Positions 6,845-50,777 of a stretch of 64,000 nucleotides of DNA are shown piece after piece. Origin of the DNA: a candidate division WOR-3 bacterium (GTDB lineage Bacteria > Hydrothermota > Tepidihabitantia > Tepidihabitantales > Tepidihabitantaceae); assembly GCA_965649295.1 (NCBI GenBank), contig CBFGKH010000002.1, positions 96,001 through 160,000 on the forward strand, read 5' to 3'. A program made the position numbers and the translations under genes. Within the stretch, counting starts at the first letter, position 1, and each line of letters starts with the position of its first letter. The notes below the pieces were generated by a model. It did no database searches and was not told where the DNA came from. It worked only from the letters and a program-made list of their open reading frames with translations.

Positions 6845-7164
6845 GATAGCAAGTGATAACTCGTCGGTTCTCCATTGGTTATGCCGATACAGGGCTGGGC
6901 AGGAAGCAGAAGGGCTGGAAGGGGGAGTCACTCCCGGGATGAGATGGGGTACTGGTTGCGGGGCTATTTGACACAGCAGGGTGAGAAGCTGTCGCAAGGC
7001 GACGGCGAAGGCTTGGGCCGGAGGCAGGCGTGGCTTGAGTTGCCGGAACAAGGGCGACACGAGAACCGCAATTAGCGGCGAGGGCTGTGGGCTAGCGAGC
7101 AGCAGGGGCAGTCAGGAATCGAGCGATGGTGGCAGCGCTAGGGCTAGGGCCGGGTGCAGGCTTG
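6829..7164. repeat. Degenerate 12-bp-period intergenic array A with CCCGGG core (6933-6938)
   Basis: In 12-mers from 7021, AG occupies columns 6-7 in 10 of 12 units (12 of 19 from 6937). AGCAGAAG recurs exactly 72 bp apart (6833, 6905). Confidence 0.75.
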
Positions 7165-7166
7165 GC

Positions 7167-9239
7167 CTAATTGCTGGTGAAGCCGGCGCGGCGGCGACGG
7201 CGGGGCCGAATCGCGTCGCCATAGACTTGGCGGATGGTTTCGTCAACGACAGCGTCCATCTGGCGGGATGTTGGGGTCGGGCGGCCAAAGGGGGTGCCGA
7301 AGTTGATACGGGCGAGGAGTCGGTCAGCCAGCGAGGAGCGCTCGCGGCCCAGTTCTTCGAGGACAGCGACGAGCCGGTCAACATCGGCTTCGGTGTTCTC
7401 GATGCTGAAACTCACCCGGACTAGGCCGATGAGCAGCCGCTCCATCAGGCGGGGCCAGACCGCAAGGCCCAAGTGGGCAATCGTGTCCTTGGTGCGGCCG
7501 ATGCCGAGCAGCTTTTTGACATACATGTTGACGCAGAAGCAGCCGTTGCGGACGCCGATGCCGCCGCGCTCGGCGAGCAGCCGGGCAGCCCGGTTGTGAG
7601 GAATGTGCCTGATAGCAAAGCTGAGGATGCCGCCCTTGCAGCCGAACCGACCGCATTCTGGGTCCTGAACACCGTAAAGGCGCAGGGCCGGGTTCTGGCG
7701 CAGCTTTGCTAGGGCATAGGCGGTGAGCCGGGTCTCTTCGGCATTCACCAGGTCCATGCCGATTCTTTCGAGCAGGTCAATTGCTTTGCCCAGGGCAGCG
7801 ATGCCGGCGACATTCTCCTCGCCGGAAGGACAGGCAGCAGCCAGTTGCTCGTTGACAAGTTCGCGGCGAATGATGAGGCCACCGGAGCCGAACGGCGCGT
7901 GCATCTTGTGGGCGGAGAAGGCGAGCAAGTCAATGCCGGTTTCAGCCATTCGAACCGGACGGTGGGCGGCAAGCTGGGCCGCGTCAACAAAGAGGAGGGC
8001 ATGGTAGTGACGACAGACCGCACCAATCGCGGCGAGGTCGTTGAAGGTGCCCATCACGTTGGAGGCACCGCAGACCGCGACGAGCCGGACCCGGGGTGAG
8101 TCGGGGTTTGAGTTCGCGTTGTAGTGGCGCAGCCGGGCTTCGAGGGCGTCAATGTCAATGAAGCCCTCGTCGTCAACCGGCACCCGTTCGAGCTGGACAC
8201 CTTCGAGATGACGCCAGGGCAGCTCGTTGGAGTTGTGCTCGACCATCGTGTTGAGGACAACGGTCGCGCCGGCCGGAGCAGCAGCGGCAATTGCCGCAGT
8301 GGCGACGTTGACGGCTTCGGTGGTGTTGCAGGTGAAGAAGACCGCGTAGTCGGCAGCCGGTGCGCCGAAGAAGCGGTGGCAGCGGTCGCGTACCGCGGCG
8401 ATGACCTCGGGCCAGGCAGATTCGGGCAGGCGCCAGGCCCGACAGAAGGTCTGCCAGACCGGGATGAAAGTCGGTGTGCTCGCGCCATTGTCAAGGTTGG
8501 TGTAGGGCTGTTCGCCTTTGTCAGTGGGCACGGTCAGCTCGCGGCCAACCAGCAGCTCGCGCAGGCGATAAAGCAGCTCAGCCCCCACAAGACCATTGAG
8601 GCCGTCGGCGAAAACCTGGTCGGGCGTTAGGGCGGGGCCGCGGGCGTTGATGAACGTATCCGGGCCGCGCTGCCGGGCAATGAGCAGGGCCCGGGCTAGG
8701 GCAATGACACCGATGATGTTCGGCGTACCGGCTTCGAGCCGGTCAGGCAGGTCAGCCCAAGCGATTGTTTCGGGTGAGACCATCTTGATGGTGCCGCCGC
8801 CGGTCTCGTAGGGCACGCCAGCCGGAACGGCGCGGCGCGGCACTGCCGCGGCGTGGACTCCAAGCGGCAGGCCGAGGTCGGCACTGGTTACTGTCCTTAG
8901 TCGGGTGCCGGGCCGGAGGCTCGCTTCAAGCCGGCGCAGCCGGCGTTCGGTGCAGAAGACAACGATGTAGTCGCCGTCGGCGAGGCCGAGATGGTCGAGG
9001 ATGATGGAGCGGGCCGCTTCGTAGAGTTCGGTGGTGATGAGCGAGTGAAGACCGGTGCCGCGGTGGACATTCGAATAGCGGCCAAGTGCAAGCAGGATTG
9101 ACTGCTCGAGTTCGTCAAACGGCCCGGTCGTAGCGGTCGGATTGGAGTCTGGCACAGGCCATTGTAGCAGAACTGCCGGGCTCTGGCGAGTTCTGCCGGT
9201 TTGGGTTTTCGGCGCCGGGTGGGTAGGCCCGGAGGCCAT
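7167..9239 (-). CDS. Class V PLP aminotransferase / cysteine desulfurase-like protein with a partially duplicated N-terminal domain
   Basis: First module YSNVHRG...GGGT...LEAGTPN; second module NLDNGASTP, EHNSN, VDAAQ, FSAHKMHAPFG (PLP Lys) and GVRNGCFC. Confidence 0.85.
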   Translation of the reverse strand: MASGPTHPAPKTQTGRTRQSPAVLLQWPVPDSNPTATTGPFDELEQSILLALGRYSNVHRGTGLHSLITTELYEAARSIILDHLGLADGDYIVVFCTERRLRRLEASLRPGTRLRTVTSADLGLPLGVHAAAVPRRAVPAGVPYETGGGTIKMVSPETIAWADLPDRLEAGTPNIIGVIALARALLIARQRGPDTFINARGPALTPDQVFADGLNGLVGAELLYRLRELLVGRELTVPTDKGEQPYTNLDNGASTPTFIPVWQTFCRAWRLPESAWPEVIAAVRDRCHRFFGAPAADYAVFFTCNTTEAVNVATAAIAAAAPAGATVVLNTMVEHNSNELPWRHLEGVQLERVPVDDEGFIDIDALEARLRHYNANSNPDSPRVRLVAVCGASNVMGTFNDLAAIGAVCRHYHALLFVDAAQLAAHRPVRMAETGIDLLAFSAHKMHAPFGSGGLIIRRELVNEQLAAACPSGEENVAGIAALGKAIDLLERIGMDLVNAEETRLTAYALAKLRQNPALRLYGVQDPECGRFGCKGGILSFAIRHIPHNRAARLLAERGGIGVRNGCFCVNMYVKKLLGIGRTKDTIAHLGLAVWPRLMERLLIGLVRVSFSIENTEADVDRLVAVLEELGRERSSLADRLLARINFGTPFGRPTPTSRQMDAVVDETIRQVYGDAIRPRRRRRAGFTSN

Positions 9240-15392: not shown

Positions 15393-18137
15393 CTACTTCA
15401 AGATTATCTTGGCTCCTGATTTCAGGGGCGAGAGCGCAGATGCTCGGTGGATGAAATAGACTCCGGGCGCGAGGCCGGAGACATCATTGGGGCCGGGCGC
15501 AAGGTCGAGCACCTTGCGGCCGGTGGCGTCGAGCAGAGCGATTGGCGACTGCAAATTGCAAGATGCAAAAGGCAAGTTGAGGGTGTTGCGGACAAGGGTC
15601 GGGCTCGCAACTGGTGTTCGAGCATCGGTGCGCGGCGTTTCGGCAATGCCGGGCACTGGGTTCAGCTTGCCCCAGATGCGGTGGGTGCTGTAAGTTCTGC
15701 CCCCAACCGTTCCGGCCCAGCCCTGATACACCAGAAACAGTTGGCCACCAGAGCCGCGCACCAAGGCTGGAAACCACTGACAGCCTCTCTGCCTGACTAC
15801 CGGTCCGCTGTCAAGGATAGTGCCAGCCGGGCTCACCCGCGCTCCGTAGATGTCAGTCTCGTCCCCGTCGTAGCGATTGTGCTCCCAGACAACGAGAAAC
15901 TCAGTACCGGTGAAGGCAACCTCCGGTGAGTATTTGTGATACGCTGTGGTGCAAACGACAATGCCCTGAGTGTCGAGCACAGTTCCATTCCGACTTACTC
16001 GGGCAGCGTAGATGTCGGTAATAGCGTTACCAGGATGGTACTCCCAGACAATAAGGAAGTTGGTGCCGTCAAAGGCAAGGGCTGGTACTTCTTCGCTACC
16101 GGCGGCCGTGCTTATCGGAATGCCCTGAGGGTCAAGGACGGTGCCGCCGGGCGTGACGCGCGCTCCGTAGATGTCGTAGTAAGTGCCACCGGTCCGGTAG
16201 TGCTGCCAGACTACAAGGTAGTTTGTCCCGTCGAAGGCAACCGCGGGGTCGTGCTGGTAGTTCGGGGCGGTCATGATGGGAATGCCGCCGGGGTCAAGGA
16301 CCTCGCCGTTCGGGCTAACTCGTGCGCCGTAGATGTCGTCGTTCCCCCAGCGTCCGTCGCTCCAGACAACAAGGTAGTTTGTCCCGTCAAAGGCGACCGC
16401 GCTTCCGTACTGGGCGCGCGCCGCAGTTGAGATGGGAATGCCCTGCGGGTCGAGCACCGCGCCGGTTGGACTTACTCGCGCGCCGTAGATGTCGGCATAG
16501 CCGGTATTGCTGCGAAAGTCAGTCCAGGTGACGAGGTAGTTCGTTCCGTCGAAGGCGACCGCCGGACAGTCCTGCCAGTGCGGCGCGGTAGAAACAGGAA
16601 TGCCTTGCGGATCGAGCACCGTGCCGTCGGGACCGACTCTGGCGCCATAGATGTCATCATAGAAGTCAACACTGTCGTTGCGGGTGTCGGTCCAGACGAC
16701 AAAGTAGTTCGAGCCGTCATATGCGCTCGCCGGCCACCAGTGTTCGTAGGTTCCGTACGACAGGACAACACCCTGCGGGTCGAGGACAGTGCCGCCAGGA
16801 CTGACACGCGCACCATAGATGTCGATGTCATCTTCGCCACGGCGATAGTCTTCCCAGACCACAAGGAAGTTGTTACCGTCGAAAGCGAGTGCCGGCCAAT
16901 CCTCGTCGTAACTGCCGGCAGATATCACGATAGCCTGCGTGTCAAGAACTGTGCCGCTGGGAGTCACCCGTGCACCATGGATATCAGTGTAGTCACCAAG
17001 AGTACTGGTCCAGACCACCAGGTAGTTAGAGCCGTCAAAGCTGACACGTGGTAATTCCTGGTCGTCGGCGGCAGTTGAGATGGCGATGCCCTGAGGATCA
17101 AGGACTGTCCCTTCAGGACTCACCCGCGCACCGTAGATATCCCAATAGCCATGGCGATAGTCCTGCCAGACTACAAACCAGTTGTTACCGTCAGCAAGAA
17201 CGGCAGGACTCTTTTCGTTGTAGGTCGAATCGGCTGAGACTGGTATGCCTTCAGGGTCGCGCACCACCCCGGCCGGACTGACCCGGGCAGCGTAGATGTC
17301 AGTCGCCCAAAGCCCTGTCTGTTTAATCCAAGCAACAAGGAAATCTGTACCGTTGAAAGCGATAACAGGCCAATACTGCCTGCCGGGTGCGGTTGATATG
17401 GGAATCCCCTGAGGGTCAAGCACATTGCCGCCAGGCGTTACCCGGGCGCCGTAGATATCGTCATTGGCACTCCAGACGACGAAGTACACCCCTTGGGCAA
17501 AGGCAACTGACGGCCCCAATGCACCTGTGTTCAAGGAGATAGGGATGCCGTCAGTGTCAAGAACAGTGCCGTCCTGGCTGACTCGTGCACCGTAGATACT
17601 CGGATTTAGCCGATCATGGCGCCAGTCTTCCCAGACTACGAAGTAGTTGACTCCATCGAACGCGACCCCACCCGTCCACTGGTTATCAGGTGCGGCGCTG
17701 ATGACGACCGGGAGTGTGTCAAGCACGACGCCGCTGGGGCTGACTCGTGTGCAATGTATGTCGTAATTACCAGAACTGCCGTCCTGCCACACGACCAAGT
17801 AGTTGGTTCCGCCAAATTCCACCGCCGGATAGTCCTCACTACCTTGGGCGACTACGACAGTCCGGTTGGTGTCCAATAGAAACTCGCCGTCGTCGGCGAG
17901 CTGCTCTTTGCCTGTTGTCCGCTCTTCTATTCGGCCGCGGTGCTGGTGCGGCTTTCCTGTTCGGCCTGACTCCAGGGTAGTAGCTCCACCAAATCTTCGG
18001 TTGCGACGCACCGACCGTACGACTTCCTGCGGGTCAAAGCCGGTGGGAGCGCAATCCTGCTGGCAAAACAGGTCATAGGGCGCTGCCAGCGCGACCAGGG
18101 CCAGACTCAGAAGTAGGGTCATCACTACTCTTTTCAT
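15393..18137 (-). CDS. Secreted repeat protein (about 14 FDGTNYLVVW...DIYGARV...GTVLDPQG repeats, probable double beta-propeller) with T9SS-like CTD
   Basis: 13 clear and 1 degenerate repeats of about 55-58 aa counted in the translation; signal peptide; CTD. Confidence 0.85.
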   Translation of the reverse strand: MKRVVMTLLLSLALVALAAPYDLFCQQDCAPTGFDPQEVVRSVRRNRRFGGATTLESGRTGKPHQHRGRIEERTTGKEQLADDGEFLLDTNRTVVVAQGSEDYPAVEFGGTNYLVVWQDGSSGNYDIHCTRVSPSGVVLDTLPVVISAAPDNQWTGGVAFDGVNYFVVWEDWRHDRLNPSIYGARVSQDGTVLDTDGIPISLNTGALGPSVAFAQGVYFVVWSANDDIYGARVTPGGNVLDPQGIPISTAPGRQYWPVIAFNGTDFLVAWIKQTGLWATDIYAARVSPAGVVRDPEGIPVSADSTYNEKSPAVLADGNNWFVVWQDYRHGYWDIYGARVSPEGTVLDPQGIAISTAADDQELPRVSFDGSNYLVVWTSTLGDYTDIHGARVTPSGTVLDTQAIVISAGSYDEDWPALAFDGNNFLVVWEDYRRGEDDIDIYGARVSPGGTVLDPQGVVLSYGTYEHWWPASAYDGSNYFVVWTDTRNDSVDFYDDIYGARVGPDGTVLDPQGIPVSTAPHWQDCPAVAFDGTNYLVTWTDFRSNTGYADIYGARVSPTGAVLDPQGIPISTAARAQYGSAVAFDGTNYLVVWSDGRWGNDDIYGARVSPNGEVLDPGGIPIMTAPNYQHDPAVAFDGTNYLVVWQHYRTGGTYYDIYGARVTPGGTVLDPQGIPISTAAGSEEVPALAFDGTNFLIVWEYHPGNAITDIYAARVSRNGTVLDTQGIVVCTTAYHKYSPEVAFTGTEFLVVWEHNRYDGDETDIYGARVSPAGTILDSGPVVRQRGCQWFPALVRGSGGQLFLVYQGWAGTVGGRTYSTHRIWGKLNPVPGIAETPRTDARTPVASPTLVRNTLNLPFASCNLQSPIALLDATGRKVLDLAPGPNDVSGLAPGVYFIHRASALSPLKSGAKIILK

Positions 18138-18149
18138 CTTTCCTCCTTC

Positions 18150-19403
18150 TCATCGTTGAATGATGACCTTACGCATATCGGATTTCTGGCAGACGAAATA
18201 GACTCCGGGTGCGAGGCGGGAGAGGTCGTTTGGGCCGGGTAAGAGGTCAAGCACCTTGCGGCCCGAGGCGTCGAGGAGGGCGATGGGGAAATGCAAGCTG
18301 CAAGTTGTCGAAGGCAAGTTGAGGGTGTTGCGGACGATGGTCGGGCTGACGAGGTGCGGGGCAGAAGGTGAGGGGTGTGGTTCAGCGGTTCCGGTGGTAA
18401 TGCCGGTGCCGCGGTAGTGGACAGCAAGGGTTCGGTAGCCGCAGACGCAGTGCAGGCCGAGAGTGCCGGCGGAGTCGAGCACGCCATAGGCTGCGGCCTG
18501 AATGTTCTCAGGCAAGCTGGTCTCGTTGGACCACTGGTTGGTATGCTTGTCGTAGCAGGCGACGCCGTTCGTTGATGTCCAGCCGTTGCCGCCGCCCCAG
18601 GCCCAGATGTAGCCGCCGGCAGCGCCAAGGCAGCAGGAGTTGCCGGCAGTGTTTGGCGGGGCGTCGGGCAGTATCTTCCAGACGCCGGTGGCAGGATTGT
18701 AGCGCTGAAACCCGAGTGAGTTCTGCCAACCGCCAAGTTGCCAGACCTGGTCGTCGGCAACACAGATAGCACCGTAGTAGTTGCCGGGCAGGGCGGGTTG
18801 GGGACGCGCTTCCCAGGTGCCTTCGCGGATGCTATAACGATGAAACTCGCAGACCTCCTGGCTCAGGCGGTGGATGAGAAAGACCGAATCGCCGACCACG
18901 GCGGCCATATTGCCGGTCCAGGGATTGCCCGGATACTCAGGCACTTCGGTGCTGGACCAAGTGTTGGTTGCTTTTGTCCAGTGGTAACAGGTTTTGTAGG
19001 TGGCAGCCGGGGTGTAGCGGCCGAAGACGTAGATGCCAGATGAGTCGGTGCCAACGCCGTCATCGGTCCACCAGACCGCAGCCTGATTGCAATTGGGCTC
19101 GGGCAAGGGCGCAATTGTTGACCACTGGCCGGTGCGGATGTTGTACCGGTAGCAGTCGCTGTAGATTTCACCGTTGCGACCGCCGATAACATACAAGTAT
19201 TGTGTGTCGCCGGGTTCGACGCAGGACATTGGCCGGAACCGACCGCTGGCAGGATAAGTCGGTTGGCTATACCAAGTGATACTGAAAAGCTCGACCGCGG
19301 TTGGGGCTGGCAGTTGGATAAGCTCGGACGGACCGTCAGCCGGGTCGGGCATTGCGGTGACCAGTGACACGGCCACCAGCACGAGCAGTGTCAGCTTAAT
19401 CAT
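18150..19403 (-). CDS. Secreted Kelch-repeat protein with T9SS-like CTD
   Basis: LYVIGG..RYN...W, VWQLGG..YNP.T..W, IWAWGG; ATG 19403 after AGGAGG; CTD. Confidence 0.85.
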   Translation of the reverse strand: MIKLTLLVLVAVSLVTAMPDPADGPSELIQLPAPTAVELFSITWYSQPTYPASGRFRPMSCVEPGDTQYLYVIGGRNGEIYSDCYRYNIRTGQWSTIAPLPEPNCNQAAVWWTDDGVGTDSSGIYVFGRYTPAATYKTCYHWTKATNTWSSTEVPEYPGNPWTGNMAAVVGDSVFLIHRLSQEVCEFHRYSIREGTWEARPQPALPGNYYGAICVADDQVWQLGGWQNSLGFQRYNPATGVWKILPDAPPNTAGNSCCLGAAGGYIWAWGGGNGWTSTNGVACYDKHTNQWSNETSLPENIQAAAYGVLDSAGTLGLHCVCGYRTLAVHYRGTGITTGTAEPHPSPSAPHLVSPTIVRNTLNLPSTTCSLHFPIALLDASGRKVLDLLPGPNDLSRLAPGVYFVCQKSDMRKVIIQR

Positions 19404-19422
19404 CAAGCCTCCTTGCACGATG

Positions 19423-19450
19423 ATTGTAGGCTGACGATGTTTTGTGTCAA
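19423..19450 (-). promoter_or_regulatory. sigma70-type promoter of the propeller-gene cluster
   Basis: TTGACA-N16-TACAAT upstream of the AGGAGG SD. Confidence 0.7.
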
Positions 19451-19482
19451 TAATGGAGGGGCAGGGTTTGGCCCTAATCTAT

Positions 19483-19520
19483 GTTATAGGCGCTGGTGGA
19501 GGGAATTGAGCGGGGAAAAT
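19483..19520 (-). promoter_or_regulatory. Conserved 38-bp terminal motif, copy B
   Basis: ATTTTCCCCGCTCAATTCCCTCCACCAGCGCCTATAAC aligns ungapped with copies A and C. Confidence 0.7.
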
Positions 19521-19644
19521 GAATGTCTTGGGATGTGGCGTCGGGTTGCGGGGAACGGGTTGTATATCGGAAAGTACACAGGCCGCGGGCTAGGAAGCAT
19601 GGCCTAACTTCCGGTTTGTCAACTGATTAGCCGTAGGAATCGTT

Positions 19645-19944
19645 TCTTGGCCCCCCATCCCGGGGACTGTCCCGGGAGTGGTCTCGGATTGGCTCTACGA
19701 GCTGCTTGCTCGCGTGGTTTGTCCGGTTCTTGGTGGTGCTATTGCGCGAGGAGTTGCCCAAGCGGTCTGGGGCTGGGCCGGTTCGGCTGATTGGCTAACT
19801 GCTCCTAGGCCCGATTCGGCGATTGCTGGCCAAGACGTTCTTGCCAGCGCTGGGTAATGCTCTTTTCTAGCTCTCTCGGCTGCTGCTGGTCAGCATGTTG
19901 GGCAGCGGGCTGGTCAGCAGGTGCCGATAGGGGTCTGGTCGAGA
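19645..19944. repeat. Degenerate 12-bp-period intergenic array B with tandem CCCGGG cores (19659, 19671)
   Basis: In 12-mers from 19645, columns 2-3 are pyrimidine-pyrimidine in 22 of 25 units (GTC/GTT/GCT/CTT), and A clusters at columns 8-10. Confidence 0.85.
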
Positions 19945-19950
19945 CCGATG

Positions 19951-21681
19951 CTAGTGGGGTAGCTGCTTTTTGGCGGCGAGCCGGTTGAAGCCGTCGGCAA
20001 GAAGACCGGCGACAGCAGTAATGAGCAGCGTGCTGCCAGCGGTGAGTGGCTCGCTTGGGCCTTCGAGGTGGATGCGGCCGACTGGTTTCTTGCCGTCAAT
20101 GACCGGCCAGCTTTGAATCTGAGCGGTGTCAATGATGTCGAAGGGGCCGAGCCGTTGGGCCGGAACGGGGTCGAGCCCGCCGTGCTTTGCTACAACCTGG
20201 CCGTTCTGCAGGGCGATGCCGTTATTGAAACGAAGGGCGGTACAGAGCAGGGTGAGGGCTTCGGCCAGGAAGTCGGCGGGTTCGAGATTGATGCCGGCAA
20301 GGCCGGTCAGTCCCAGTAGCAGAGCCTGCTCGCGGTCGCGGGCCAGGGCAATTTTGAAGAGCAGTCGGTTGGTGCTCACTGCCTCGGCAACGACCCGGAG
20401 CTTGCGAAAGGTTCGGCCAGCAGCTTCGAGCAGCTCCAAGGCTGCGTCGGTCTGGTTCTGGGCGAGGCGGAAGCAGCCGTATTGGAATCGGGCAGTGGCG
20501 AGGGCATAGCTCTCCTCGGCATCAGCCAAGAGTTCGATGGCGGCGTCAAAGGCGGCCGCGGCCTGGCTTGGTTCCTCTTGGGCAGCAAAGATGCGGCCGA
20601 GCACGAGCAGGGCACCAGCCTCGACTGGTCGCGCACCAGTTGCTTGGGCTAGGGTCAATGATTCGTCGCCGTGGTGTCGGGCAGTGGCGAGGTCGTGCTG
20701 GTCGAGGGCAAGCTCGGCCAGGCGCGAGTGGACGAGTGCCTGCAGCCGACGATCGCCAGCAGCGATTGAGCGGTCAAGGGCCTGCTGATAGGTGGTTCGG
20801 GCGCTGGTAAGGTTGCCCTGGCGTTGGTAAGCGAGGCCGAGATTGGCGAGGATGTCGCCGTAGGCGGATGGGGTGTCGGGTGTTGGCGCCCTGGTGAGCT
20901 CGTCAGCGGCCCGGCGAAAGAAGTCAATGGCCTGGCCAAGCTGATTGCGGTGAAGATAAAGCTCGCCGAGGCAGTTGCAGGTGTCGCTAATGGTCTCATG
21001 CCGGCCTTGGACAGCGTCGTCTTGCAGCACGCGTTCAAGGCAGTCAACTGCGTCTTCCCAGCGGCCGAGCGCTTCGAGCGCCCAGCCGAGGTTGTAGGTG
21101 ATGACAATCTTGGTGCGGATATCGCCCTGCTCTTCGGCGAGATTGTAGGCCTGCTGGTAGTAGGTGAGGGCGGTCTCATGGTCGCCTTGCAGGCCGGCAA
21201 TGTTGGCGAGCATCATCAGAACCGAATATTCGGCATCAGGTGGACCTTGTATCTGCCAGTGCTGGCGGGCCTTCTCGAAGAGGGCGCGGGCCTCGTCATA
21301 GGCGCCACGGGTGTAGGCGATTTCGGCCGCAACGTAGTCATTCGAACCGAGAATGTGCTCGCGTTTGGCGGGTGAGAGGTCGGCGGCCGCGCGGATGAGC
21401 TGGCGGAACTCTTCGGCTTCAGCGAGCAGGCCGATGCCAATCATCGCCTCGGCAGCACGGATAGCATATTCGCCCATCCGGCGCTGATTCCCGAGGCGGT
21501 GGGCAGTCATAATCGCTTGGTGGAACAGCTCGCTGGCCTGGGTTGGGTCTTGAGGACAGATGCGGCGGGCGGTCTGGAATTGCTGCTCGGCCCGCTCAGC
21601 CGAGTCGGTCACCGGGCTGGTGCCCGCAGGCGCGGTATCGGGACTCTCCTTGCCGGAATCGTCATCCATCGCTACGGCCAT
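19951..21681 (-). CDS. Tetratricopeptide-repeat (MalT-like TPR) protein
   Basis: Many TPR motifs (YNLGWALEALGRWEDA, NLGLAYQRQGNLTSA); short GAF-like C-terminus. Confidence 0.85.
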   Translation of the reverse strand: MAVAMDDDSGKESPDTAPAGTSPVTDSAERAEQQFQTARRICPQDPTQASELFHQAIMTAHRLGNQRRMGEYAIRAAEAMIGIGLLAEAEEFRQLIRAAADLSPAKREHILGSNDYVAAEIAYTRGAYDEARALFEKARQHWQIQGPPDAEYSVLMMLANIAGLQGDHETALTYYQQAYNLAEEQGDIRTKIVITYNLGWALEALGRWEDAVDCLERVLQDDAVQGRHETISDTCNCLGELYLHRNQLGQAIDFFRRAADELTRAPTPDTPSAYGDILANLGLAYQRQGNLTSARTTYQQALDRSIAAGDRRLQALVHSRLAELALDQHDLATARHHGDESLTLAQATGARPVEAGALLVLGRIFAAQEEPSQAAAAFDAAIELLADAEESYALATARFQYGCFRLAQNQTDAALELLEAAGRTFRKLRVVAEAVSTNRLLFKIALARDREQALLLGLTGLAGINLEPADFLAEALTLLCTALRFNNGIALQNGQVVAKHGGLDPVPAQRLGPFDIIDTAQIQSWPVIDGKKPVGRIHLEGPSEPLTAGSTLLITAVAGLLADGFNRLAAKKQLPH

Positions 21682-49709: not shown

Positions 49710-49812
49710 AGGTACTGGACAATCATACACCACCCCAGCGCCGGTTTCCAGCCCTGGCTAGCGACTAACCACCAAGGTCACTAAGGCACTAAGGGGTGAG
49801 AACCGGAATCCG

Positions 49813-50136
49813 GTCTCGCTAGTTGGTTCTCTTTTGGTTTTGGCAGTTCTGTCCCAAGTTCGCGGGCGAAGGCCGCGGCCAAGGCCGGTAGGAACTAGGG
49901 CGAAAAGCGATTGAGCGAGACTGGGCAAGGCCTGACCGATAGCCTTCGGCCTAAGACCGGCAGAGAGAGGATTCGAGGCTTATCAGCAGGTACAGTCACA
50001 AACACAGCCCCAAGCATGTTCTAGAAGATAGTGGCGAGCATCGTGGTAGAGACAACCTGAGTCGCGCCCGGAAGGAGCACGGGTAACCATCCCCGGGACA
50101 GAGGAGGGGGAGGTAAGGAGAAATCAGCCATCAGCT
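49813..50136. repeat. Degenerate 12-bp-period intergenic array C with CCCGGG core (50092-50097)
   Basis: In 12-mers from 49813, columns 9-10 are purine-purine in 25 of 27 units. This is the reverse complement of the array B pattern, in the same phase relative to CCCGGG. Confidence 0.85.
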
Positions 50137-50330: not shown

Positions 50331-50777
50331 CTACTTTATCGGCCACCTGGGAATGGCCTTGTCCACTTCCTCCATCAGGCGGATGGTGTTGCGGATGGCG
50401 ACGACCACACGCTGGTAGTGGCGAATGTCATCGTGGGACAACTTGCGGCCCTTGCGGTCTTTGAGCCACTTCGCTAGCACCTGATAGCCGCCGATATGGA
50501 ACTCCCATTCCTCGGGCCGGATGCCGGCGAAATACTGCTCGTCATTGATGTACACCCGGCCGCCATCCTTGTCATCCTGAGCCGAACCAAGCATCTCGCT
50601 GCCGCGCTGAACGGGGTGCAGCATCCTACTATCACCTTGGCTGAGCGAAGCCCCTCCACTGTCACCCTGAGCGGAGCGAAGCGGAGTCGAAGGGTCTTCG
50701 CCGCCGCGGCTACGAAGATTCCTCGACTTCGCGCCGGACGCGTCGCTCGGAATGACAGACAATCCTGGTTGTAGCAC
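50331..50777 (-). pseudogene. C-terminal remnant of a type ISP restriction-modification enzyme, fused to palindromic repeats
   Basis: GRVYINDEQYFAGI..EEWEFHIGGYQVLAKWLKDRKGR is typical of the type ISP C-terminal domain. The N-terminal half of the ORF is translated repeat DNA. Confidence 0.75.
50570..50758. repeat. Cluster of REP-like TGTCA[TC]CCTGAGC palindromic elements
   Basis: Imperfect palindrome of about 100 bp at 50659-50758 (CTGTCACCCTGAGCG...CGCTCGGAATGACAG) plus half-copies at 50570 and about 50629. Confidence 0.75.

Follow-up and report, generated by a model that had tools for sequence, protein, structure and literature searches.

The DNA investigated here is a stretch of 64,000 nt from a candidate division WOR-3 bacterium of the family Tepidihabitantaceae (GenBank assembly GCA_965649295.1, contig CBFGKH010000002.1, positions 96,001 to 160,000 of the forward strand), referred to below as the window. 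At positions 19645-19944 it carries an array of phased 12-nt units. The array belongs to a non-coding element, one member of a large and so far undescribed family in which a leader, a GC-rich head and about 23 phased units are combined. The genome contains at least 55 copies of this family and probably about 80. Together they account for roughly 1-2% of a very compact genome, an estimate based on about 80 copies, each of about 0.5 kb, and a genome size of 2.28 Mb. We tentatively explain the array, with a probability of about 0.4, as a register-locked docking track for a putative polymerising protein, which would act in cis on the chromosome, for example as one of the landmarks partitioning it. 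New findings are the census of about 80 copies, the spacing statistics, a second type of head and the negative outcome of the dyad and fold tests.

Periodicity, head and register of the array

Read from position 19645 in steps of 12, the array comprises 25 units. Two pyrimidines (YY) stand in columns 2-3 of 22 of these units, 21 of the 33 A's lie within columns 8-10, and 41 of the 80 T's within columns 2-4. A preliminary description, made from the sequence of the window, had noted the YY pairs and the clustering of A, and both could be confirmed. The same applies to its statement that the phase persists across an in-frame TAA (19855-19857), since seven more units follow in phase beyond this codon. 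The periodicity also held in shuffle statistics. For period 12 a column-by-base G of 123.1 was obtained (z = 9.32), and none of 1000 dinucleotide-preserving shuffles reached this value. In the same test period 3 alone gave z = 3.0, and periods 4, 6 and 24, which are harmonics of 12, gave z = 4.7, 5.2 and 6.7, respectively. Regarding the excess of period 12 over period 3, positions 19645-19944 ranked first among all 300-nt segments of the window with 105.5 (background mean 29.4, standard deviation 9.5). The runner-up was found at 49801-50100 with 100.2.

The first two of the 25 units (19645-19668) are part of the conserved head, and the array proper covers 19669-19944 on the + strand with 23 units in register, the first of which overlaps the head. 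Columns 1-4 of the units read G-Y-Y(-T), and the rest is variable. In this copy [G/C/A]-Y-Y occurs in 19 of the 23 units and G-Y-Y in 14. The head (19651-19685, + strand), conserved in sequence, anchors the array and determines its register. It consists of a C-run and an inverted repeat around CCCGGG, followed by AGTGGTCTC, with AGTGGT after the inverted repeat. Compared with the 16-nt core of the family, the head of this copy shows no mismatch. It is also the most stable local fold of the element (mean -13 kcal/mol).

Further copies were searched for in the whole genome (2.28 Mb in 19 contigs, 100% complete). Scanning with the 16-nt head core and up to four mismatches yielded 321 sites, 35 of which then showed a period-12 excess of at least 70. 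Two of these candidates were dropped, one being the opposite strand of another copy and the other, on contig 16, lacking an in-phase pattern, so that 33 strict copies were obtained. In the strict copies the pattern begins at the head, spans about 22-24 units and then ends; a conserved 3' motif after the array was not found in the 33 copies. Phase 0 relative to the head was measured in both array halves for all 33 copies, and the gaps in a MAFFT alignment of the arrays are mainly multiples of 12. The family logo, built from 693 units, has G at column 1 (0.59), C or T at column 2 (0.44 and 0.47), T or C at column 3 (0.57 and 0.34) and T at column 4 (0.49). Its information is confined to these four columns (0.41, 0.54, 0.53 and 0.17 bits), with a mild enrichment of purines at columns 8-9.

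A sequence-only model of the 33 arrays, designated R1, matched the present copy at 19646-19938 with 100.2 bits and gave 68 matches in the genome at E<=0.01. The 22 strongest matches outside the training set all have a period-12 excess (61-136), and 21 of them lie outside open reading frames (ORFs) of at least 140 aa. Because R1 was trained on the family that it counts, a model-free, strand-blind scan of the genome was added (378,859 windows, mean 29.7, standard deviation 9.7, cut-off at an excess of at least 75). It resulted in 86 clusters; four of them lie deep within long ORFs, which leaves 82 loci. Of these loci, 22 were new relative to R1. Fourteen of the new loci were inspected, and most of them differ in their column preferences and have a second type of head, again a G-run/C-run inverted repeat.

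The leader extends about 190 nt upstream of the head, with conserved blocks at fixed distances. In the present copy (all + strand) the furthest-upstream block conserved across the MAFFT alignment of the 33 copies is a 'GTTATA' box at 19479-19490, which could be a promoter element. The second block (19504-19515), about 20 nt downstream of the first, is TGAGCGG / TGTGCAGG-like. An inverted repeat, H1, follows at 19559-19582; it is imperfect and of the TGTRTAC..GTACACA type here, and coincides with a local stability peak near -108. Other copies have a different palindrome, TTGCACC..GGTGCAA, at the same distance to the head. About ten copies are of one type and about six of the other; the remainder have other hairpins or none. 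Blocks 3 and 4, a CTAACT box (19601-19612) and a CAAnnGATTAG box (19618-19632), complete the conserved blocks of the leader.

The possibility that the array encodes a tetrapeptide repeat, either in a small ORF at 19678-19857 or in a longer frame, is practically nil. The 12-nt period equals four codons, and G-Y-Y would place Val, Ala or Leu at every fourth residue. The stop counts, however, refute a coding repeat: the six frames of this copy contain 1, 3, 2, 2, 3 and 2 stops and those of the 33 arrays, with 88 codons each, 99, 66, 93, 59, 82 and 96. At most 8 of the 33 arrays are free of stops in any single frame, and no frame is open throughout the family. The pattern crosses TAA, TGA and TAG in phase, and period 3 is far weaker than period 12 (z 3.0 vs 9.3). 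The flanking genes are read with the standard code. The exclusion of tetrapeptide coding in the preliminary description is therefore borne out.

The symmetry of the units was examined as well, as the preliminary description had placed the YY pairs and A roughly symmetrically about the centre of the in-phase CCCGGG and had proposed pseudo-two-fold units suited to a symmetric dimer. The best reverse-complement axis of the logo does lie at column 6, but it does not stand out from column permutations, a fraction of 0.10 (this array) and 0.35 (family) of which scored at least as high. Complementarity between columns i and 12-i was not detected in the 693 units against column-shuffled controls (z of -0.5, -1.6, -3.6, -1.7 and +1.5 for the pairs 1-11, 2-10, 3-9, 4-8 and 5-7), and a pseudo-two-fold unit is unsupported in this genome. 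Adjacent units show no complementarity beyond composition.

The folding of the element was likewise investigated on a larger scale. No long fold-back hairpin was found, as arrays are on average no more complementary to themselves than to other arrays (difference -0.004). The minimum free energy of the arrays did not differ from shuffles (17 arrays out of 33 with 12 shuffles each; mean z on the sense strand -0.44, on the antisense strand -0.65). For the head RNAalifold gave no consensus structure, and the two head helices showed no covariation, with 62.7% of positions paired vs 61.8% after shuffling (46 of 500) and 70.3% vs 69.2% (144 of 500). Mismatches in the leader hairpins (17 G:T vs 11 A:C) were not informative about a transcribed strand. 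No conserved terminator follows the array, where only a slight stability bump was seen at +264 to +288. In the window only two tRNAs pass the gathering score of Rfam. Between 19350 and 20050 the best Rfam scores were 8-17 bits, relaxed threshold included, compared with gathering scores of 50-80. A match to RsmY (11.4 bits vs 57) was rejected as noise.

Distribution among relatives and along the chromosome

Arrays matching R1 were detected in 24 of 41 genomes, this genome included. Within the same family 20 of 24 genomes have them, and both genomes of the sister family do; for three other families of the order the counts were 0 of 4, 0 of 5 and 1 of 5, the last being marginal. The period in the relatives is always 12, and the sequence of the unit is specific to the genus or subfamily. 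Often the units are near-perfect tandem 12-mers, such as GCTTGCCAAGCT, GYCCCGGGAGCC and GCTTCGGGAGTT. Read from the head into the array they start with G-Y-Y and have mostly purines at columns 8-10. A G-run/C-run head stands in front of the arrays, whose length is 17-32 units. Many consensus units in related genera are clearly palindromic; judged by these units, a two-fold site may be ancestral or facultative.

In one relative (G004, loci L173-L192) several subfamilies were observed, each with its own leader and its own 12-mer. Some copies there show an identical order of unit variants, pointing to recent duplication of whole elements, and masked runs of N frequently adjoin the arrays. By eye, a contig start is no more than 1 kb away from roughly a quarter of the array matches listed for fragmented assemblies, which suggests that the arrays break assemblies.

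Searching one genome per species with the exact 17-mer of the head yielded 88 matches, all of them single. Period 12 was absent from the 79 matches amenable to scoring (maximum excess 49). These are therefore regarded as chance matches, and the exact head as lineage-specific. In metagenome contigs a 20-nt head sequence gave three chance matches and no arrays. The adjacent gene for a TPR-repeat protein (19951-21681) has no relatives in these contigs, and synteny based on it returned only paralogue-like matches of 25-37% identity and no orthologous locus. Among 40 relatives no DNA similarity to the locus was detected beyond its own genome.

The locus itself is present in contigs of four hot-spring DNA runs, whereas no RNA run is listed as containing it, which speaks neither for nor against its expression. 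One contig of a related strain covers 19201-20198 with 79 substitutions and no gaps. Four shorter strain contigs over the array differ at 15-20 positions each, again with no gaps. The sole indels among the strains, one nucleotide lost and one gained at a distance of two bases, occur in the leader of a single contig.

Along the chromosome the copies follow one another at quasi-regular intervals of about 25-30 kb, and distances below 10 kb hardly occur, a result obtained from one draft genome in 19 contigs. The 55 best-supported copies define 40 gaps with a mean of 30.5 kb, a median of 30.2 kb, a minimum of 11.4 kb and a coefficient of variation (CV) of 0.41. Random placement gave CVs of 0.875 (in 318 long intergenic gaps), 0.91 (in all intergenic gaps) and 0.92 (uniform), and in none of 3000 simulations each was the CV as low as observed. 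A minimum gap as large as 11.4 kb did not occur in any simulation under the uniform or the all-gap null. Comparable values were obtained with all 65 merged R1 loci (CV 0.415) and with the 82 model-free loci (mean gap 25.6 kb, CV 0.50; 0 of 3000 simulations as low). Where R1 loci are further apart, the intervals are occupied by loci that the model-free scan alone detected; a single one out of 21 comes as close as 10 kb to an R1 locus, compared with 10 expected (0 of 5000 simulations). The two head subfamilies interleave and avoid each other. Consecutive elements of the R1 type alternate in orientation in 26 of 40 neighbour pairs (contig C1 and others), a marginal count made by eye.

The orientation of the elements is independent of their neighbours. 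In 17 of the 33 copies the downstream gene shares the strand of the element, and in the other 16 it does not; for the upstream gene the counts are 16 to 16, one copy lying at a contig end. A Pfam scan of the 63 neighbour proteins of the 33 copies revealed no shared theme. The neighbours are a mix of housekeeping proteins (GyrA, MutS, Rho, EF-P, ProRS, SelA and others) and secreted proteins. It is common for arrays to adjoin convergent genes at their 3' ends, and one element, at about 34.0-35.9 kb of contig C3 (G000, locus L241), divergently adjoins the rho gene.

Interpretation of the array and comparison with known elements

If the array is a docking track, a putative nucleic-acid-binding protein would nucleate at the head and about 23 protomers would be laid in one direction, one per 12 positions, each of them reading little beyond G-pyrimidine-pyrimidine. 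The resulting nucleoprotein landmarks of about 280 bp might serve as topological-domain barriers, loop anchors or insulators. That the 12-nt step, the start at the head, the extent of about 23 steps and the G-Y-Y mark remain constant while the rest drifts is what is expected of the track of a protein polymer. The periodicity, the non-coding character, the locked register, the family with its taxonomic range, the lack of indels between strains and the spacing statistics are demonstrated; protein binding, DNA as the form that is read, and an architectural role are inferred. The even spacing and the mutual avoidance of the two head types argue for an effect in cis over 10 kb or more, and with such an effect a chromosomal role, at the level of DNA or co-transcriptional, fits better than an RNA acting in trans. 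Of the repeated binding by a symmetric dimer that had been proposed earlier, the repeated docking site is judged the best explanation, while the symmetric-dimer form finds no support in this genome.

Several points weigh against a docking track on DNA. The units in this genome are not palindromic, and their conserved half, G-Y-Y-T in columns 1-4, is strand-asymmetric. A step of 12 bp differs from the helical repeat of B-DNA. The oriented leader of 190 nt with its conserved blocks would also suit a promoter and a transcribed RNA. As binding-protein candidates a histone fold and Alba were looked for and not found, and the neighbouring genes did not provide a candidate either. The gene calls, on which the intergenic status of the copies and the spacing nulls are based, are greedy longest-ORF calls. 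Finally, regular spacing was not seen in a relative assembled as a single contig, where 71 matches merged into 33 loci with gaps of 5-616 kb (CV 1.29); detection in this genome was incomplete, with 150 of 2235 candidates scored by a model from another genus and masked runs of N beside arrays.

A more far-reaching and rather doubtful proposal is that the roughly 80 tracks, one every 25-30 kb, are the cis sites of an undescribed chromosome-partitioning system, in which rods of head-nucleated filaments would split the nucleoid into regular loops or topological domains. The elements would then be a sequence-encoded counterpart of insulators or loop anchors in a hot-spring lineage. Each would be a periodic DNA 'ruler' with a fixed 12-nt step, length and start and only three letters per step under selection, and these rulers would be placed at even distances around the chromosome. 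Such a system would offer a handle on how bacterial chromosomes are split into domains and on how protein polymers count along nucleic acid. Even with another function, for instance as an RNA platform, the partner protein should be new. To our knowledge, no described bacterial element combines these features.

Among the alternatives, a stand-alone non-coding RNA is less likely, though a rival to be taken seriously. The leader would be a promoter with a 5' domain, and the single-stranded array of about 276 nt would expose G-Y-Y every 12 nt to a pyrimidine-reading RNA-binding protein, which would nucleate at the head and coat the array; the product might be a scaffold, a sponge or a nucleoid-acting RNA. 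The directional layout (leader, head, array), the fixed distances of the leader blocks, the independence from the neighbouring genes and the asymmetric, non-palindromic units are consistent with a transcript. Conservation by base class, with C and U interchangeable, is typical of single-strand readers, and the arrays are neither more nor less structured than shuffles. Furthermore, the subfamilies of one relative differ in their units and share only G-Y-Y-Y and purines at columns 8-10. On the other hand, no sigma-70 consensus match for the element was found on the + strand, although the organism uses such promoters; a conserved terminator, covariation of the head hairpins, asymmetric leader mismatches (17 vs 11) and an Rfam match are likewise missing. 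In addition, a trans-acting RNA gives no reason for 55-80 evenly spaced, dispersed copies. A selfish or relic repeat, that is a dispersed minisatellite or an element resembling miniature inverted-repeat transposable elements or repetitive extragenic palindromic (REP) sequences, would require no host function, the period being a fossil of tandem duplication. It would agree with the multiple intergenic copies, the genus-specific units, the long identical runs of unit order in one relative, which point to recent duplication of whole elements, and the homogenised arrays of relatives, as slippage or unequal exchange would give. Neutral decay, however, would hit all columns equally and add indels, whereas 33 degenerate arrays stay in register for about 264 nt and carry information at columns 1-4 alone, and strains at about 92% identity show no gaps. 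Neither a Y1 transposase of the RAYT/IS200 type (Y1_Tnp, PF01797) nor an RVT_1 reverse transcriptase (PF00078) was found in the 100%-complete genome. Across genera the arrays keep to about 17-32 units, and neutral junk predicts neither even spacing nor the avoidance between subfamilies. Conservation across at least two bacterial families also makes neutrality unlikely, and we regard a relic as improbable.

Less probable still is a tract resembling a Rho utilisation (rut) site, in which phased pyrimidine pairs would feed the primary sites of the Rho hexamer at about 12 nt per subunit and end or insulate transcription between operons. Rut sites are described by a (YC)N9-13 spacing, with adjacent Rho binding clefts 12-13 nt apart (PMC6144790), and YY plus 10 nt falls within this spacing. 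A rho gene is encoded in the genome, the arrays frequently lie at convergent 3' ends, the TPR gene here stops 7 nt past the array, and the minus strand of this copy has more C (0.37) than G (0.25). This C>G skew, the opposite of which is found on the head-sense strand (G 0.366 vs C 0.25 in this copy, 0.31 vs 0.27 in the family), is nevertheless confined to the opposite strand in this copy and inconsistent across the family. YC stands at the phased position in only 7 of 23 units, and the phased motif of the opposite strand is R-R-C. Moreover, Rho needs 6 sites and not 23, its loading needs no register fixed by a head, and the orientation of the elements relative to the flanking genes is random.

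Among known objects, centromere iterons, rut sites, REP elements and sponge RNAs come closest, and each of them fails at least one defining feature that was tested. Full-text searching of the literature found nothing prokaryotic that matches such 12-nt periodic repeat arrays. The sponge RNAs CsrB and RsmZ are a few hundred nt long and carry about 20 reiterated short protein-binding motifs. Their motif is GGA in hairpin loops at irregular spacing, and they are encoded by one to a few genes per genome; here, in contrast, G-Y-Y is phased and exactly spaced, no hairpins were detected, and there are dozens of copies. Repeats made by retroelements (diversity-generating retroelements, retrons or telomerase-like systems) differ in that no reverse transcriptase gene (PF00078) was found here. 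The tubC repeats of pBtoxis are 12 bp long. Centromere iteron arrays such as tubC/TubR and parC/ParR likewise consist of short direct repeats in tandem, theirs being bound cooperatively by a small DNA-binding protein that spreads and thereby builds a higher-order nucleoprotein structure. For tubC several direct repeats in blocks are described, which TubR binds and along which it spreads (PMC6009700). Iterons comprise few to about ten well-conserved repeats, compared with about 23 units having 3-4 conserved positions, and occur once per replicon beside a partition operon, unlike the 55-80 chromosomal copies among housekeeping genes. The separate head and leader are a further difference, and no partition genes were detected by Pfam matches among the 63 neighbours of the 33 copies. 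With rut sites the arrays share pyrimidine dinucleotides at a spacing of about 11-15 nt on a poorly structured strand (PMC6144790). Rut sites, however, are loosely defined, C>G, about 60-80 nt long, not phased by an anchor and located within the terminated transcript, whereas the arrays measure 276 nt, have more G than C on the head strand, keep an exact phase and lie in either direction relative to genes. REPs are hairpin-forming palindromes of 20-40 bp associated with a Y1 (RAYT) transposase. Together with bacterial interspersed mosaic elements (BIME), REPINs and REP-derived nucleoid RNA they resemble the present family as high-copy intergenic elements dispersed among core genes; the latter differs by having no Y1 transposase, no hairpin potential of the array and a degenerate 12-nt phase code as its defining feature. 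The roles proposed for REP/BIME are in supercoiling, termination and nucleoid organisation.

Other elements and genes of the window

Three elements were identified in the window, near 7.0 kb, 19.7 kb and 50.0 kb, the last being inverted. The inverted copy (49824-50125, - strand) has its head at about 50099-50125, 23 units running from 50099 down to 49824 and a leader up to about 50290; R1 matches it with 106.3 bits. The third period-12 locus (6877-7176, - strand; about 103.0 kb on contig C2 of the genome) has the second head type with a G-run/C-run inverted repeat and an excess of 68.6. It was detected by the model-free scan alone and missed by R1.

The left neighbour of the array at 19669-19944 is a gene on the - strand for a protein with Kelch repeats and a T9SS (type IX secretion system) tail (18150-19403). 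Its sigma-70-type promoter, TTGACA and TACAAT separated by 16 nt (11 of 12 consensus positions), is located at 19423-19450 on the - strand, outside the element, and forms the left limit of the latter. AGGAGG, a Shine-Dalgarno sequence, precedes the start of this gene. The near-consensus promoter and AGGAGG indicate that the lineage uses canonical promoter and ribosome-binding signals. The right neighbour is the TPR-repeat protein gene (19951-21681, - strand) mentioned above.

The four-helix-bundle family PF05635 (Avd-like) was considered as a partner and rejected; it was found in 25 of 41 genomes, namely in all 14 array-rich ones (at least 10 matches), but in array-free ones too. The two PF05635 genes of this genome are not adjacent to arrays. 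One of them (G000:C8:96740-97147) has short inverted repeats around CACTAG (about 15-17 nt) on either side, which are distinct from the 12-nt arrays.

Just upstream of the element near 50.0 kb lies an ORF of 148 aa (50331-50777, - strand), probably a gene fragment, whose match to a Type ISP restriction enzyme is limited to the C-terminal specificity domain. The third-ranked period-12 signal of the window is due to a coding repeat and not to an array: at 16206-16494 a tandem repeat of 156 nt (13 x 12) lies within a gene (15393-18137, - strand) that encodes a secreted protein of 914 aa with reiterated units of about 52 aa.

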